A DNA stretch of 64,000 nucleotides. It comes from Candidatus Thorarchaeota archaeon. GTDB lineage: Archaea > Asgardarchaeota > Thorarchaeia > Thorarchaeales > Thorarchaeaceae. The DNA lies in contig JBHLRP010000002.1 of NCBI GenBank assembly GCA_048882485.1, positions 150,606 through 214,605 of the forward strand. Direction: 5' to 3'. Of this stretch, positions 4,428 through 10,539 are shown piece by piece. Positions within the stretch are counted from its first letter, which is position 1, and the number at the start of each line of letters is the position of its first letter. The notes beneath the pieces were generated by a model. It saw only the letters and a list, made by a program, of their open reading frames with translations, had not been told where the DNA came from and ran no database searches. The position numbers and the translations under genes are program-made.

Positions 4428-5558
4428 TTATCTGTCCATATATGTCTCCCAGATGTCTAGAATATCACCATCAGAGGTTGCATAAAACCTACTCGAGAGA
4501 TTTGCTGCAAGGCATGAGTGGTTCGGCAGGATACTCACACGGTCTCCAGGAACGAGGCCTTTCAATGGAGACCCCTTGGCTATCTTCACTTTCCCATGTT
4601 CTTGAGAGAGTCCTGTTATGTCAGTGTTTTCTGCAAAGTCCCCTTCATGGTAATCGGAAATGACTTTCCCAAATCCACAATTCGGGAAGAGGTGCGTAGG
4701 TCCGGGATCCAATGAGAGTGCTGTTGCACCTGCATCGAGAATGATACGGTTTGGATATGCGCTTATGACACTCGAAAGGACTGACAGTGCGCAGTCGTAG
4801 GGCTTGCAAACACCTAGTGCCACTTGTGTATAGTCGAAGAAGACATAGCTACCTGGACGAACTTCTGTTATACCCTTCTTGATGGAGTCAGTCAACATCA
4901 TGGTGGGAGTTGAGCCGATGCTGACAATCTTTGGTGTAAGTGCTTTACTCCTTTTTCTCAAATCTCTGGCGAACTTGAGCATGACATTCTGTTCTTCCTC
5001 AGCGATAGCTTTGATTTCATCAATCGACCTGGCATAATAGGAATGGCCGCTATGGGTGAGGATTCCAGCGAAGTTCAGTCCTCGCGCCTTGTGGATTTTC
5101 TCAGCAAGAGCTAGGGAGCCCTTCCTCGTGGGATCTACACCACTTCGATGATAGCTGCAATCCACTTTGAGAAGTACATCTAGATCCTCCTTGGCTTTCC
5201 TGAATCTCGTCCTTAGTTCTTTGAGTGCAGCAGGATGGTCGATAATCACCCTAAATTTGACCTTGATGGCAAGTTTAGCGACGGAATTCATCTTGTCGGG
5301 GGCAAGGGGAACTGCCAACGTTATGTCATCAAATCCATTCTCTGCAAAGAACATTGCTTCGCCCATTGTTGATACTGTGATGCCCGACGCTCCATAGTTC
5401 CTTTGAATCTCCGCAATCTCAACACATTTGTGTGTCTTGACATGCGGTCTCAGAGCTACTTGATGTTCGCGTGCCTTATTTGCCATATTCTTGATGTTTT
5501 GGACGAGTCTGTCATAGTCAACCAAGGTCGCAGGCGTTATCAGATCATCAACGCGCAT
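4428..5558 (-). CDS. D-threonine aldolase/D-serine dehydratase-like PLP enzyme (alanine racemase fold)
   Basis: TPATLVD, LRPHVKTHK (PLP Lys), HSGHSY, GSTPT, EVRPGSYVFFD, SQEHG, PNHSC; ATG 5558 preferred over 5585. Confidence 0.9.
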   Translation of the reverse strand: MRVDDLITPATLVDYDRLVQNIKNMANKAREHQVALRPHVKTHKCVEIAEIQRNYGASGITVSTMGEAMFFAENGFDDITLAVPLAPDKMNSVAKLAIKVKFRVIIDHPAALKELRTRFRKAKEDLDVLLKVDCSYHRSGVDPTRKGSLALAEKIHKARGLNFAGILTHSGHSYYARSIDEIKAIAEEEQNVMLKFARDLRKRSKALTPKIVSIGSTPTMMLTDSIKKGITEVRPGSYVFFDYTQVALGVCKPYDCALSVLSSVISAYPNRIILDAGATALSLDPGPTHLFPNCGFGKVISDYHEGDFAENTDITGLSQEHGKVKIAKGSPLKGLVPGDRVSILPNHSCLAANLSSRFYATSDGDILDIWETYMDR

Positions 5559-5605
5559 GTCTTTTCCGAAGCAAAGGACCCTCAAAACCGTTGCTGTGCT
5601 GTCCC

Positions 5606-7027
5606 CTAAGTTATGCCATGTTGGTCGCCGCGGATTCTTCTTCTCAAACCAAGCCTTGCCTCATCTACCTTTGAAGCAATGCGACTCTTCTTGGGCCAAT
5701 ACTCCTTGATCTCCTCATATCCTTGGACATCCCAATACAATGGACAAGCTCCCAAGCAATAATCGAAATGAATACAGACCTTGCAGCCCTCAGCCGCAAA
5801 GTCTTTGCTCCTCCAGAATCTAGAGGCTCGATTGTTCCACACTCTCTCAAAGGATTCTTCTAGGAGATTGCCAACGGGGTCGCTGAAGCTCGAGCAAGGA
5901 AGAAGCCCGCCCTCGGGATCAACGGACAGTAAGCCATCACATGCGGCACAACTCTTTGCGCCCAGGCCCAGCGCAATAGGATTGAAAATGCATACTGGTG
6001 TAGGAGCATACCATACGAATTGCACTCCCTTCTTGTTTGCTCTCTTCTTCACTCCCTTCACAATCTCGCCAATGTCTTCATACTTGACCTGCAACTCGTC
6101 TCTCAACTTCGCGGCAGTGCCAGTATAGATGACCATGTTCATGCTGAAATAACTCAGTTCCAATTCATCGGCGATGAAATTAACCAGTTCTTCAAGTTTG
6201 TCAACATTAGGTCGACAGATTGTTGTATTGCAGTGAGTATAGATGTTCGTTTCTTTGAGGTTCTTGATTCCTTGAACTGTTTGCTCAAAGGATCCAGGCG
6301 CGCCTGCAATTTGGTCATGCGTCTTTGCATCAGGACCCTCGATTGATACCTGGGCACTGTTTAAATCCGCCTGGACTAGTCGTTCAACGAATTCTGGGTT
6401 TGCACATCGTCGGCCATTCGTGATGAGATTAACACGGAGTCCCTTTTCTCGGGCATAAGCTATCAGCTCAAATATGTCCTCGCGTAGAGTTGGCTCACCT
6501 CCGGTGAAAGAAAGACTTGGAACGTGGGCCTTGTCAACAATGGTGTCAATAATTCGCTTCACTTCGTCTGTGGTCATCTCTTTGGTTTCTCGATGCGGGG
6601 AGAATGCATAGCAGAATTGACATTCATTGTTACATCGATAAGTTAGTGCTATCTCGCTTAATACAGGATATTTGATATCTCCTTCCCCAAAGGGCACAAT
6701 TCTGGCGGTCTTGTATGAGTAGATGTTCTGATTTCCCATTACCATGCTCCGTAGGTCATCAACAAAGGCGGCTAGATCATTGAGCACTTGTTGTTCATCA
6801 GCTTCAAAGTTATTCACAAAGTAGTCTCTAACCTCTTTTGCTGTTGCACCATCAAGCAGCTTACGTAACATTGCAGTCCCAGTTTCGTTGAGGTGCATGA
6901 CCTTGTTAGGACGCAATATCAAGAGGTTATCTTGTGGTCTTACGAAGAAGTAATCCTTGACCTCATGCATGAAATTGGCTATCCAGCTGAGCTCCTCCAA
7001 TGTGTAGTCATACTGTGGCTGATGCAT
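5606..7027 (-). CDS. PqqD/RRE-radical SAM-SPASM peptide maturase
   Basis: N-terminal RRE-like LNETG..ML..LLDG.T..EV...; CNNECQFC (CxxxCxxC); FTGGEP; SPASM CAAC...PC...CKVC...CLGACP. Confidence 0.92.
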   Translation of the reverse strand: MHQPQYDYTLEELSWIANFMHEVKDYFFVRPQDNLLILRPNKVMHLNETGTAMLRKLLDGATAKEVRDYFVNNFEADEQQVLNDLAAFVDDLRSMVMGNQNIYSYKTARIVPFGEGDIKYPVLSEIALTYRCNNECQFCYAFSPHRETKEMTTDEVKRIIDTIVDKAHVPSLSFTGGEPTLREDIFELIAYAREKGLRVNLITNGRRCANPEFVERLVQADLNSAQVSIEGPDAKTHDQIAGAPGSFEQTVQGIKNLKETNIYTHCNTTICRPNVDKLEELVNFIADELELSYFSMNMVIYTGTAAKLRDELQVKYEDIGEIVKGVKKRANKKGVQFVWYAPTPVCIFNPIALGLGAKSCAACDGLLSVDPEGGLLPCSSFSDPVGNLLEESFERVWNNRASRFWRSKDFAAEGCKVCIHFDYCLGACPLYWDVQGYEEIKEYWPKKSRIASKVDEARLGLRRRIRGDQHGIT

Positions 7028-7136: not shown

Positions 7137-7529
7137 ATGAGTTCCGAGATAAAATTGCCATATGGAACAATCAGCAAGAAGAAGCTGATTATGCATTTCA
7201 GCGCCTTTGATATCGATTTGCCAGTGATTGCTGCTGGAATCAGAGAGAGGATGGATGTTCTGCGAGAGCTTGAGGTTGCTTTCGCAGGATTTGGAACTGA
7301 GATACCAGCAGAGATGACTGAGCAGACACCAGCCACGGTAAAGGCATTCTTTGAGTATGTGGGAAAGGGGACCGACGCTGATGTCATCCTCAAGCGCGTG
7401 TACCATCTCGTTTGGGGCGGCATGATTATGGAGTTTCCAGATCTTGACGAATGGGCGGCAGCCAAGGCGGACCTATCGAATTTAACGATTGCACAAGCAG
7501 ATGTACTGCGTGCGCAGCGTGGTGAATAA
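7137..7529 (+). CDS. hypothetical protein (130 aa)
   Basis: ATG 7137 after GGAGTG RBS; no recognised motif. Confidence 0.75.
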   Translation: MSSEIKLPYGTISKKKLIMHFSAFDIDLPVIAAGIRERMDVLRELEVAFAGFGTEIPAEMTEQTPATVKAFFEYVGKGTDADVILKRVYHLVWGGMIMEFPDLDEWAAAKADLSNLTIAQADVLRAQRGE

Positions 7530-7612: not shown

Positions 7613-9772
7613 TTGAAGCGCAACTTAACCCTGATGTTTACAATGGGTTTCATCCTTCTAGTCTTTGCTCCTGTATCCGTCAGTGGGACGACAATTAGCC
7701 AAAGCCCTGTTATCAACCTCGATAGCGTTTTCGTGGATGCGGTAGTTCTACCAAATGGCCGAATAAACGTCACATATTGGATAACCATATCCGTAATTGA
7801 GAATTCCCTGGGCGGATTCGATTTAGCGGGGATTCAAGAAACCACAATCTATGATTCCGATCGCGCGTACGCTGAGGTGGACGGAAACCGCTACAATCTG
7901 GTCGTTGGACAGCTCTCAAATGGCTACGCTCTAGACTGGACTCCCAGGACTCAAGCTGGAGAAACAGTCACAGTAGTATTTGGGTATTTCAGTACAAACA
8001 GGGTTCTAGAGATGACAACTGGAACATTTACTCTTGAGGGCTCTGGTCTGCAAGTTACCGGTGATTTGGCTGTTTTCAACTGGGCTCCAGTACAGTGGAG
8101 TGTGCCTCTTGATTATGAGAATGTGAGAGTAATTTATCCTATTGAAATGCAGGCTTCATGGATTACCGGGGAAGGTGGAATCACCTCAGAGGGAGCAGAT
8201 TATGCGGGCTATGTTGTGGATAGCCGTCAGAGGCTTGAAGACAACTTTGGCAGCTTCTTTCCCTTCGATGAGGAGAACCTTCTTGCCTATCCCTCGTCGG
8301 CTTCCGCTGACCCTCGATACTTCAGCGTTAGTCTAGGACATTCTAATTTGGGCTCCTATGACCACTTCCGTGTATTTCATTATACCAATTGGAGCTTCTA
8401 TGCTCCGTATCTCGAACCGGGCGCCCTAGACTATAACACTCCGGAGAATTTCAATGCAGATGCGAACACGGAATTCTCAATTGGTGTGGATGTATTCAAT
8501 ATCGGAGACGCCCCACTCAACGATGTCACAGTAACACTCTCTGTGCCAGACAATCTCACTTTGACTTCTGGCCAGGTCTCTACTTATATTGGAACACTCG
8601 ATGGCGGAGAGAACTCTCATTTGACTTACCATTTCATCCCCGATAACTTGCCAGAGATTCTTCCCCTCACGTTTCAAATCTCATCATCCAGTCTTAATAC
8701 AAGTGACTGGGTAACATTTACAGTCAACATCTATGTGCGGGAAGTTATTCCTCCCTTGATACCTCCGAATCTCCTGATTTGGGGATCTGCTGGAATAGCG
8801 GCCATAGCTGTTGTTTCTTTTGGCTATCGTCGAATAATGGGTGGATATGGAGCAACATGGGAGGTTGATGAAACAACAAAGGTGTATCAGAGCCCGGAGA
8901 TTGCCATCCAGACTTTAGGCACACCAGGAACTGTTGCAGATCTTGATCCTGTTGAGAGCGCATTCTTTGTCAATACAAATCGCAAGAAACTGGTGTCAAT
9001 GATTCTCATGTCCTGTGTGAAAAAAGGTGCAGTAAGGGTGATTTCAACGGACCCCTTACGCCTATCAGATACGGGCCTGAGGTTCGAGGACCCTACTTAC
9101 TATGAACAGATGTTTGTCGCCTCTATTAGCAACAATGAGCTTGACCCCGACAGGATTGATGACATGCTGGAAGAACTAGCTGAGAAGGTGCAAGAGAAGT
9201 CTTGGGATGCGGACTTCGAGGCTACTAAGACCCATCATGAGGAGATGGTCGATGGGGCCTGGGAAGACCTGGAAAGTGATCCAACACTTGATGGGCGTGT
9301 TGATTACTATTTCAATCGGAGGTATCACGACACTTGGGCTTGGTATTGGTTCTACATGCATCCTCATCATAACCGAAGAATCAGCCAAGTGTTCACACCT
9401 CCAGGGGGGACAATCGCTCCTCCAAGGGTACCTGATTGGTTTGGTCAGATTGCTGAGGCTGCTGGCCATTCAATTGGCGAAGTTGGACGTGTGGTTGGAG
9501 ATGTAGCTTCAACCACGGGCCAAATCATGACGAATGTAACAAACACCATTGGAGATGTCCTTTCGGGAGTTGGTAACATCATCCGAGAACCGCTGAAACC
9601 TATCTTGGAGGAGACCAGTCGTTGCGTGTCTCATGATGCCTGCCACTCTGCATGCGTTTCGCACGATGCATGTCATAGTGCCTGTCACAGCGCATGCCAT
9701 AGTGCTTGTGTATGCCATAGCGCCTGTCATAGTGCATGCCACAGTGCATGTGTTTCTGGAGGATTTAGATAA
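7613..9772 (+). CDS. single-pass membrane protein (DUF2207-like/Ig-like ectodomain) with C-terminal Cys/His repeat tail; putative radical SAM substrate
   Basis: Signal peptide; beta-rich ectodomain with CARDB-like VFNIGDAPLNDV; TM LLIWGSAGIAAIAVVSFGY followed by RR; tail CVSHDACHSAC...CVSGGFR. Confidence 0.85.
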   Translation: MKRNLTLMFTMGFILLVFAPVSVSGTTISQSPVINLDSVFVDAVVLPNGRINVTYWITISVIENSLGGFDLAGIQETTIYDSDRAYAEVDGNRYNLVVGQLSNGYALDWTPRTQAGETVTVVFGYFSTNRVLEMTTGTFTLEGSGLQVTGDLAVFNWAPVQWSVPLDYENVRVIYPIEMQASWITGEGGITSEGADYAGYVVDSRQRLEDNFGSFFPFDEENLLAYPSSASADPRYFSVSLGHSNLGSYDHFRVFHYTNWSFYAPYLEPGALDYNTPENFNADANTEFSIGVDVFNIGDAPLNDVTVTLSVPDNLTLTSGQVSTYIGTLDGGENSHLTYHFIPDNLPEILPLTFQISSSSLNTSDWVTFTVNIYVREVIPPLIPPNLLIWGSAGIAAIAVVSFGYRRIMGGYGATWEVDETTKVYQSPEIAIQTLGTPGTVADLDPVESAFFVNTNRKKLVSMILMSCVKKGAVRVISTDPLRLSDTGLRFEDPTYYEQMFVASISNNELDPDRIDDMLEELAEKVQEKSWDADFEATKTHHEEMVDGAWEDLESDPTLDGRVDYYFNRRYHDTWAWYWFYMHPHHNRRISQVFTPPGGTIAPPRVPDWFGQIAEAAGHSIGEVGRVVGDVASTTGQIMTNVTNTIGDVLSGVGNIIREPLKPILEETSRCVSHDACHSACVSHDACHSACHSACHSACVCHSACHSACHSACVSGGFR
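9623..9769 (+). repeat. coding repeat: CHSA x7 and CVSHDA x2 (11 Cys, 9 His in 49 aa)
   Basis: Direct translation; all seven CHSA units use different codon combinations. Confidence 0.95.
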
Positions 9773-10539
9773 TGGGAGAAACCATCAAGACGATATTTCA
9801 TTTGAGCGATATCCACATTGGAGAACAAGGAGTGTCTTTAGGCGATTTCCGCGAAGTAATTGAGAGTATTGAGAAGCGTGCTCCGCATATGACCTCGCCT
9901 CTCATTCTTATCACGGGCGATCTTACAGGGGAGGGACTTAGAGAGGAGTATGAAGCATTCTCTAATGTTGTATCTGGCATAGAAACTCCTCTCATAATCG
10001 TGCCTGGAAACCATGACGAGCGCAATTACGGTGCTGCACACTTCGAGGAGATGTTTGGAGAGCGTTTTAAGACCTACGAGGACGAAGCTATTGCGTTGTA
10101 TGCAGCTGACAGTGCAGAACCAGACAATGATGCAGGGCATGTTGGTCGGACTAAGTATAATGAGATACATGACTTTCTCGGAGGGGCGAAAGAGAAGGTG
10201 CGCATATTCGCGTTACATCATCACCTGATACCGGTCCCAAACACTGGGAGGGAACACAATGTTGTGGAGGATTCTGGTGCTGTCTTGGGACTTTTGAATC
10301 GAACGCAATGCTCGTTGGTCCTAAATGGTCACCGTCATGTCCCTTGGATGTGGAATCTGAATGATATGATTATATACACGACAGGTACCCTGCTCTCCCG
10401 GCGTGTTCGTGGAGCTACGACTCAAGTCTATACGCTTATTGAGCTTACCAAGGCCGATGTGACATTTACCTTGGTTGAGAAGTCAGGTTCTGCGAGCCTA
10501 TTCTCTCGTGCCGAGCTTCGTCCTGCTGTCCTAGGCTAA
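9772..10539 (+). CDS. calcineurin-like metallophosphoesterase (CpdA/Icc-like)
   Basis: HLSDIH, TGDLT, PGNHD, HHH, GHRH; TAATG stop/start overlap with the upstream gene. Confidence 0.9.
   Translation: MGETIKTIFHLSDIHIGEQGVSLGDFREVIESIEKRAPHMTSPLILITGDLTGEGLREEYEAFSNVVSGIETPLIIVPGNHDERNYGAAHFEEMFGERFKTYEDEAIALYAADSAEPDNDAGHVGRTKYNEIHDFLGGAKEKVRIFALHHHLIPVPNTGREHNVVEDSGAVLGLLNRTQCSLVLNGHRHVPWMWNLNDMIIYTTGTLLSRRVRGATTQVYTLIELTKADVTFTLVEKSGSASLFSRAELRPAVLG

Follow-up and report, generated by a model that had tools for sequence, protein, structure and literature searches.

Work on the thioether chemistry of radical S-adenosylmethionine (rSAM) enzymes has been confined almost entirely to short secreted peptides. 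A large archaeal protein was first shown to undergo this chemistry in September 2026: in Methanococcus voltae, CrpC, an rSAM enzyme with a recognition element (RRE) for peptides that are synthesized ribosomally and modified post-translationally (RiPPs) and a SPASM domain, installs ranthionine links on the 28.8-kDa CrpA, a protein with ten 17-residue repeats that carries the thioethers within 4-5-residue motifs and is described without membrane segments (PMC13692751). The rSAM-SPASM enzyme StsB of Streptomyces sparsogenes links a C-x-C-x-C core to Gly (PMC10288494), and membrane proteins of the TIGR04222/DUF2207 type have low-complexity Gly/Ser/Cys C-termini that are suspected substrates of RiPP enzymes (PMC12452194). 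We report on a locus in a 64,000-nucleotide stretch of DNA from Candidatus Thorarchaeota archaeon (assembly GCA_048882485.1, contig JBHLRP010000002.1, positions 150,606 to 214,605 of the forward strand; hereafter the window, to which all plain coordinates refer), where an RRE-rSAM-SPASM gene adjoins the gene for a 719-residue membrane protein that ends in an invariant tail rich in Cys and His. Our data suggest that this tail is probably the in-cis substrate of the adjoining enzyme, most likely for Cys thioether crosslinks.

The locus resembles the CrpA/CrpC pair in that an RRE-rSAM-SPASM gene adjoins the gene for a large protein with C-terminal Cys repeats, and the CrpA product likewise remains a protein. 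However, the enzyme of the window scores 68.2 bits against the CrpC model (TIGR04463; cut-off 525) and, unlike the Cys-rich CrpA, the candidate substrate is a 52-residue tail on a 719-residue membrane protein with 1.7% Cys. Tandem Cys-x-x-x repeats as predicted targets of an rSAM enzyme are also known from the CXXX-repeat system (TIGR04117/TIGR04115; PF27846), but that family model describes a protein of ≈98 residues and not a membrane protein tail, and represents a prediction without experiment; moreover, the tail gave no TIGR04117 match in a search of its own genome (E ≤ 10; cut-off 50 bits) and the enzyme is not a TIGR04115 member (28.3 bits vs 350). The C-x-C-x-C core of StsA, the StsB substrate, resembles the (Cys-Ala)n...GGGR tails of sister proteins described below, while StsA itself, unlike the pair in the window, is a short peptide that bears a leader and has its RRE on a separate protein, and the enzyme reaches 110.7 bits against the StsB model (cut-off 625). 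Iterated Cys-x3-Asp or Cys-x3 motifs, every one of which is crosslinked by an RRE-rSAM-SPASM enzyme, are further found in the ranthipeptide systems PapA/PapB (freyrasin) and SCIFF/CteB, and the tail has two C-V-S-H-D units; PapA and SCIFF are short secreted peptides, unlike the tail, and the PapB score is 85.9 bits (cut-off 340).

Overall, and unlike in sacti- and ranthipeptide systems, there is no short leader-core precursor, the candidate substrate being the end of a 719-residue membrane protein. In this respect the locus resembles the TIGR04222/DUF2207 proteins, i.e. membrane proteins with a Cys-bearing C-terminal tail as suspected substrate, but their tails are predicted to be periplasmic and are linked to MNIO rather than rSAM enzymes (PMC12452194), and the TIGR04222/DUF2207 hidden Markov models matched neither the tail protein (P0001) nor ten distant relatives (E ≤ 0.01). 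We found no description of these tails in the published literature, where searches with tail-motif strings led only to primers and to text on other matters. What is most likely new here is the place of an rSAM-targeted Cys repeat on the membrane protein's own tail.

Sequence and conservation of the tail

The tail comprises the last 52 residues of the protein (668-719; 9614-9769, + strand) and, as judged by translation, the same peptide is present in ≈30 species. It begins with T-S-R, followed by two copies of C-V-S-H-D-A-C-H-S-A, two of C-H-S-A, a C-V, three more copies of C-H-S-A and finally C-V-S-G-G-F-R. Between the first Cys codon at 9623 and the last Arg codon, which ends at 9769 and precedes the stop codon (9770-9772), there are 49 residues, of which 11 are Cys (22%) and 9 are His, compared with a single Cys (C468) in the remaining 670 residues. 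The Cys spacing is mostly a regular C-x3-C, with His, and there is one C-V-C; seven C-H-S-A and two C-V-S-H-D-A units make up a tandem Cys-Xaa-Xaa-Xaa arrangement. No second tail of this Cys/His kind was found in the organism's own genome.

An initial annotation of the window had stated that the seven C-H-S-A units all differ in their DNA, that Ser is specified by both TCN and AGY codons, and that all nine His occur in H-x-A-C. Direct reading confirms this: the twelve-base strings are all different, Ser is encoded by TCT in the first unit and by AGT or AGC in the rest, and the His are found in two H-D-A-C and seven H-S-A-C contexts. On this basis the tail had been regarded as an old, selected motif and not as a product of DNA slippage. 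Running Tandem Repeats Finder on the tail DNA gave a period of 12 with 64% matches and a period of 42 with two copies and 85% matches. This weak periodicity is about what the fixed Cys, His, Ser and Ala codons alone give, and recent slippage is therefore not indicated.

Age and selection are also borne out by the orthologs, in which the tail is neither absent nor random. We compared the last 52 codons of 28 orthologous loci, where 27 distinct DNAs encode essentially one peptide. There are six peptide variants, each with one substitution (H-A-A-C in two loci, T replacing S in two, and the penultimate F changed to V, Y or G). In contrast, between two and six synonymous codons are used per tail position across species, and the same aligned Ser sites use TCN in some species and AGY in others. 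Expressed per pair of loci, the median number of tail codons that differ synonymously is 30 out of 52 and the median number that differ non-synonymously is zero (maximum 2). For the 23 codons directly 5' of the tail the median non-synonymous divergence (dN) is 0.29, and the remainder of the protein is 55-96% identical among orthologs, across genera. Since the synonymous sites are saturated while the amino acids are near-unchanged across genera, the tail is strongly supported as an old element under residue-by-residue purifying selection on the protein. Its conservation is comparable to that of the most constrained proteins known, which implies an exact structural or chemical role.

The only change in repeat number seen in Thorarchaeia is in the most divergent ortholog (G013, locus L033), which is without exactly one ten-residue C-V-S-H-D-A-C-H-S-A unit. 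As another cause of the invariance we considered an overlapping nucleotide-level element or the antisense open reading frames (ORFs) at 9509-9742 and 9600-9749; this was rejected on the grounds that third codon positions in the + frame vary freely.

A separate observation concerns genome G048 (93% complete), in which an in-frame TAG (L001:4371-4373; L030 has identical DNA) stands in place of the Ser codon located 17 codons ahead of the tail and the 52 tail codons that follow still give a perfect peptide. PylS was not found in this genome, and the TAG may be explained by a nonsense mutation of recent origin, by read-through or by an error in sequencing.

Linkage and co-diversification of the tail and the rSAM enzyme

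The proposed maturase is a PqqD(RRE)-rSAM-SPASM enzyme of 473 residues encoded at 5606-7027 (- strand), as judged by Pfam, alignment and adjacency. The Pfam scores are 40.8 bits for PF05402, 101 bits for PF04055 and 27.6 bits for PF13186, all above the cut-offs, and in the alignment the rSAM cysteines form a C-x3-C-x2-C pattern (C132/C136/C139) together with seven conserved SPASM cysteines. The enzyme thus combines the C-x3-C-x2-C motif, the full SPASM domain and the RRE that characterize sacti- and ranthipeptide enzymes.

Our ortholog survey covered 87 Thorarchaeia genomes, including 24 of high quality. The enzyme was found in 64 of the 87 and the tail protein in 63, with the same genus pattern, and nearly every match to the tail protein reaches residue 719; among the high-quality genomes each of the two is present in 20. 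Both genes are missing from G009, G011, G014 and G015, each of which is at least 91% complete. Wherever contigs allow, the tail gene and the rSAM gene are adjacent and divergent. Genome G059 had been a candidate for a tail without the enzyme and was rejected as such, as a run of Ns (scaffold gap) interrupts the locus.

To follow the family beyond Thorarchaeia, a profile from 18 sequences was searched against 1.84 billion proteins (E ≤ 0.001), which gave 849 representatives, and the best 148 of these were sorted according to tail type. (Cys-Ala)n...AGGGR tails account for 48, a C-V/A-C (CxC) variant ending in SGGAG or similar for 23, and Cys-His-(Ser/Asp)-Ala tails with 2-10 units, mostly ending in V-S-G-G-x-x, for 27; one is a hybrid, and the rest are truncated or tail-less. 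(Cys-Ala)n tails are much commoner than Cys-His tails in the family, and the variation between 2 and 10 units in the distant Cys-His tails is expected for iterated sites. Named sources of family members include Candidatus Ozemobacteraceae, Promethearchaeota and Aigarchaeota. Ten family representatives matched no Pfam or NCBIfam family; the tail of one distant bacterial relative (P0024) has a TIGR04117 match of 18.7 bits and a precomputed PF27846 hit.

The end motif is kept family-wide as a small residue, Gly-Gly, any residue and then R, H or G. For the terminal G-G-F-R the initial annotation had suggested recognition or cleavage. As the motif is family-wide and at the true C-terminus, the first is plausible and the second is not; G-G-x-R would sooner be an element for recognition or spacing than a site of cleavage.

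At least 349 loci in the genome collection encode the (Cys-Ala)n form, and the context figures that follow refer to the best 80 of these. They are mostly from Anaerolineae, among them Bellilinea caldifistulae GOMI-1, Leptolinea sp. HRD-7 and Anaerolinea thermophila, and their tails are invariant though identity to the query is 34-53% over the best aligned segment. An rSAM homolog starts ≈100-150 bp downstream in 71 of the 80, and three of the nine loci without one (L054, L117 and L126) are on contigs shorter than 4 kb. An rSAM-SPASM gene also adjoins the tail gene in all other distant contexts that were read (L032, L042, L043-45, L046, L127 and L128).

The identity of the window enzyme to its relatives is 43-45% over the full length for those beside bacterial Cys-His tails, 35% for the one beside the hybrid tail, 30% for an Asgard rSAM beside a (Cys-Ala)n tail and 28% for the next-best rSAM of its own genome. 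In a maximum-likelihood tree with other rSAMs from the same genome as outgroups, all tail-linked rSAMs form one clade (99/98), which divides irrespective of organism into one branch with the Cys-His and hybrid tails (100/99) and another with the CxC tails (83/90). The rSAM phylogeny hence follows tail type and not taxonomy, which is what an enzyme-substrate pair predicts.

These data also bear on the type of bond. One alternative is that the enzyme makes His-centred C-C crosslinks, i.e. three-residue cyclophanes on His-x-Ala as in triceptides, and SPASM enzymes do include such cyclophane formers (triceptide/3-CyFE enzymes). All His in the tail are found in H-x-A and, in 183 of the 194 units of distant Cys-His tails, the Cys is followed by His, and in 176 the third residue after Cys is Ala. 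However, the (Cys-Ala)n and CxC tails have no His or other aromatic residue and are served by the same rSAM clade, such that a shared chemistry must use Cys, Ala or Gly. In addition, no cyclophane-maturase family is among the 25 best NCBIfam matches of the enzyme, and we would give this alternative only a very slight chance.

Proposed modification of the tail and its alternatives

The thioether chemistry that we favour would proceed as follows. The enzyme would bind the tail protein via its PqqD-like domain and proceed along the repeat, treating every Cys-His-(Ser/Asp)-Ala or Cys-Val-Ser-His-Asp unit as one site. At each Cys, the sulfur would be joined to a carbon of a nearby residue through a thioether within the molecule (sactionine or ranthionine). 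This would give a rigid end piece, ladder-like and lined with His, that is kept on the full-length, receptor-like protein and not released as a peptide. Thioethers are the most likely outcome because no residue other than Cys is shared by all tail types, because CrpC, StsB and PapB, which act on Cys-repeat substrates, all make S-C links, and because the tail has the two Cys-x3-Asp units. Among the functional options that the initial annotation had listed together, the rSAM/thioether one is favoured by linkage, co-occurrence and co-diversification, and the His-x-Ala cyclophane is disfavoured by the aromatic-free sister tails.

As to what a modified tail might do, a role in metal or redox handling, or in signalling to the coupled phosphoesterase (see below), would be a guess. 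A more specific version, in which the enzyme turns the tail into a covalently stapled, His-lined metal/redox centre that acts as a cytoplasmic sensing or output element, we regard as unlikely; if true, such a centre would stay on the full-length, receptor-like membrane protein and represent a RiPP-style, protein-borne cofactor of a new class, which anaerobes ranging from Asgard archaea to Chloroflexota would have in common, (Cys-Ala)n variants included.

The enzyme might also perform some other Cys-directed chemistry on the tail, e.g. formylglycine formation (anSME-type), sulfur insertion or cluster assembly, to generate a protein-borne cofactor. SPASM chemistries are varied, the enzyme matches no curated family, and the extreme invariance of the tail recalls that of the cofactor-forming peptides PqqA and MftA. 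Nothing specific points in this direction, however, and the closest characterised Cys-repeat cases all give thioethers, which makes such a chemistry quite improbable.

Several observations weigh against a thioether modification by the adjoining enzyme. In genome G008 (95% complete), the rSAM ORF (L038:2968-3693, - strand) ends after residue 241 and the SPASM half is gone, while the tail gene (L038:5160-7142, + strand) shows an in-frame loss of about residues 372-440, which include the membrane helix, together with a perfect tail. This may reflect recent joint decay, an assembly fault or a tail that is able to persist without the enzyme. Furthermore, the enzyme is far short of the cut-offs of all curated maturase families (see the values for PapB, StsB, TIGR04115 and TIGR04463 above), and its reaction type is therefore unreadable from homology. 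AlphaFold2 modelling of residues 410-719 (18-row alignment) was uninformative for the tail, with a pLDDT value (from the predicted local distance difference test) of ≈30. Among the sequencing runs listed, those carrying the stretch are DNA runs of sediment, soil and mangrove metagenomes and none is an RNA run. The action of the enzyme on the tail, the type of bond, the cytoplasmic location and the function of the product are inferences. Prediction of a complex between the enzyme and the last 120 residues of the tail protein, with controls not run, gave a score of 0.00 and speaks neither for nor against binding.

Also to be set against the thioether model is the possibility that the tail is an unmodified metal-binding module (Zn, Cu, Ni or Fe-S), either metallothionein-like or a multi-metal finger, with the enzyme acting elsewhere or being co-regulated. 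Cys-x3-Cys with His is a classic metal-ligand pattern, here with 11 Cys and 9 His in the 49 residues and the one C-V-C, and an invariance that includes Ser, Ala and Val would suit a metal site with a precise fold. The location, predicted to be cytoplasmic and reducing, and the intact tail beside the truncated enzyme in G008 agree with this, and the authors of the CrpA study suspect metal roles even for modified CrpA (PMC13692751). On the other hand, an unmodified metal site leaves unexplained a dedicated RRE-rSAM-SPASM neighbour that is near-universal across phyla and co-diversifies with tail type, as well as the commoner sister (Cys-Ala)n tails without His. Metallothioneins are small and evolutionarily variable, unlike the tail, and there is no alternative rSAM substrate nearby; specifically, no small Cys-rich precursor ORF was found within 3 kb of the locus. 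A metallothionein-like function, which the initial annotation had included among its options, does not account for the dedicated enzyme, and we consider an unmodified metal-binding tail improbable.

Tail-bearing protein, neighbouring genes and wider significance

The gene for the tail protein (7613-9772, + strand) starts with a TTG codon that aligns with the ATG of its orthologs. Kyte-Doolittle scans predict an N-terminal hydrophobic signal or anchor (residues 3-29; 7619-7699, + strand) and a single transmembrane helix (residues 382-405; 8756-8827, + strand) followed by Y-R-R. The outer part spans ≈350 residues and includes a sub-threshold CARDB-like stretch. According to the positive-inside rule, residues 406-719 including the tail are predicted to be cytoplasmic. 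They contain an alpha/beta winged-helix-like domain (residues ≈444-539; 8942-9229, + strand; AlphaFold2 pLDDT 80-93), which is the most widely kept region of the family and where the profile matches of distant relatives begin, and thereafter a patch of aromatic residues, a stretch rich in Gly, Val and Thr and, last, the tail. The 719-residue protein matched no family in Pfam or NCBIfam, a VIA-align search of 48,161 PDB chains gave generic coiled-coil matches only (Z ≈5), and the nearest database relatives are Thorarchaeota or Promethearchaeota proteins from metagenome-assembled genomes.

In Thorarchaeia loci with enough flank the recurring gene order is a pyridoxal phosphate (PLP) enzyme, the rSAM enzyme, p133, the tail protein and, often, a phosphoesterase. 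The PLP enzyme (4428-5585, - strand; Ala_racemase_N plus D-Ser-dehydratase-like) adjoins the rSAM gene in most of them. The 130-residue, Cys-free p133 (7137-7529, + strand) shows 70-84% identity in 13 loci and is positioned between the rSAM and the tail gene in all Thorarchaeia loci read. Its AlphaFold2 model is alpha/beta (pLDDT 74); it has no Pfam or NCBIfam match and no Foldseek PDB match at E ≤ 0.001, and its Atlas features are all below 0.9. A role for p133 as partner or chaperone, such as has been proposed for CrpB, is conceivable. One locus (L036:3770-9348, genome G003) has an insert of ≈5.5 kb between the rSAM gene and p133 in an otherwise conserved cassette.

The calcineurin-like metallophosphoesterase (9772-10539, + strand) is translationally coupled to the tail gene, its ATG overlapping the stop codon (TAATG, 9770-9774). 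It is present in most orthologous loci, with an ATGA overlap in L001, and is missing from L010 and L034. In NCBIfam it most resembles cyclic-nucleotide phosphodiesterases and an anti-phage phosphoesterase, with scores that are all well under the cut-off.

Other gene arrangements were seen in distant loci. In the (Cys-Ala)n loci L032 and L041, a gene for a small zinc-ribbon protein with two transmembrane segments (L032:2838-3218, - strand; L041:3852-4253, + strand) is located immediately upstream of the tail gene and overlaps it, and L032 has two paralogous RRE-rSAM-SPASM genes. In the Cys-His loci L043, L044 and L045 of Candidatus Ozemobacteraceae, a gene for a Peptidase_M50B membrane metalloprotease (L043:7253-7996, + strand) directly precedes the tail gene and an unannotated gene of 290 codons follows the rSAM gene.

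Taken together, the locus would apply the logic of the CrpA/CrpC system to the tail of a receptor-like membrane protein, within a family of hundreds of members that has no Pfam or NCBIfam name and ranges from Asgard archaea and Aigarchaeota to Anaerolineae (including cultured strains) and other anaerobes. With the tail solved, membrane proteins would have a newly defined post-translational modification and a widespread orphan gene pair would have a function.

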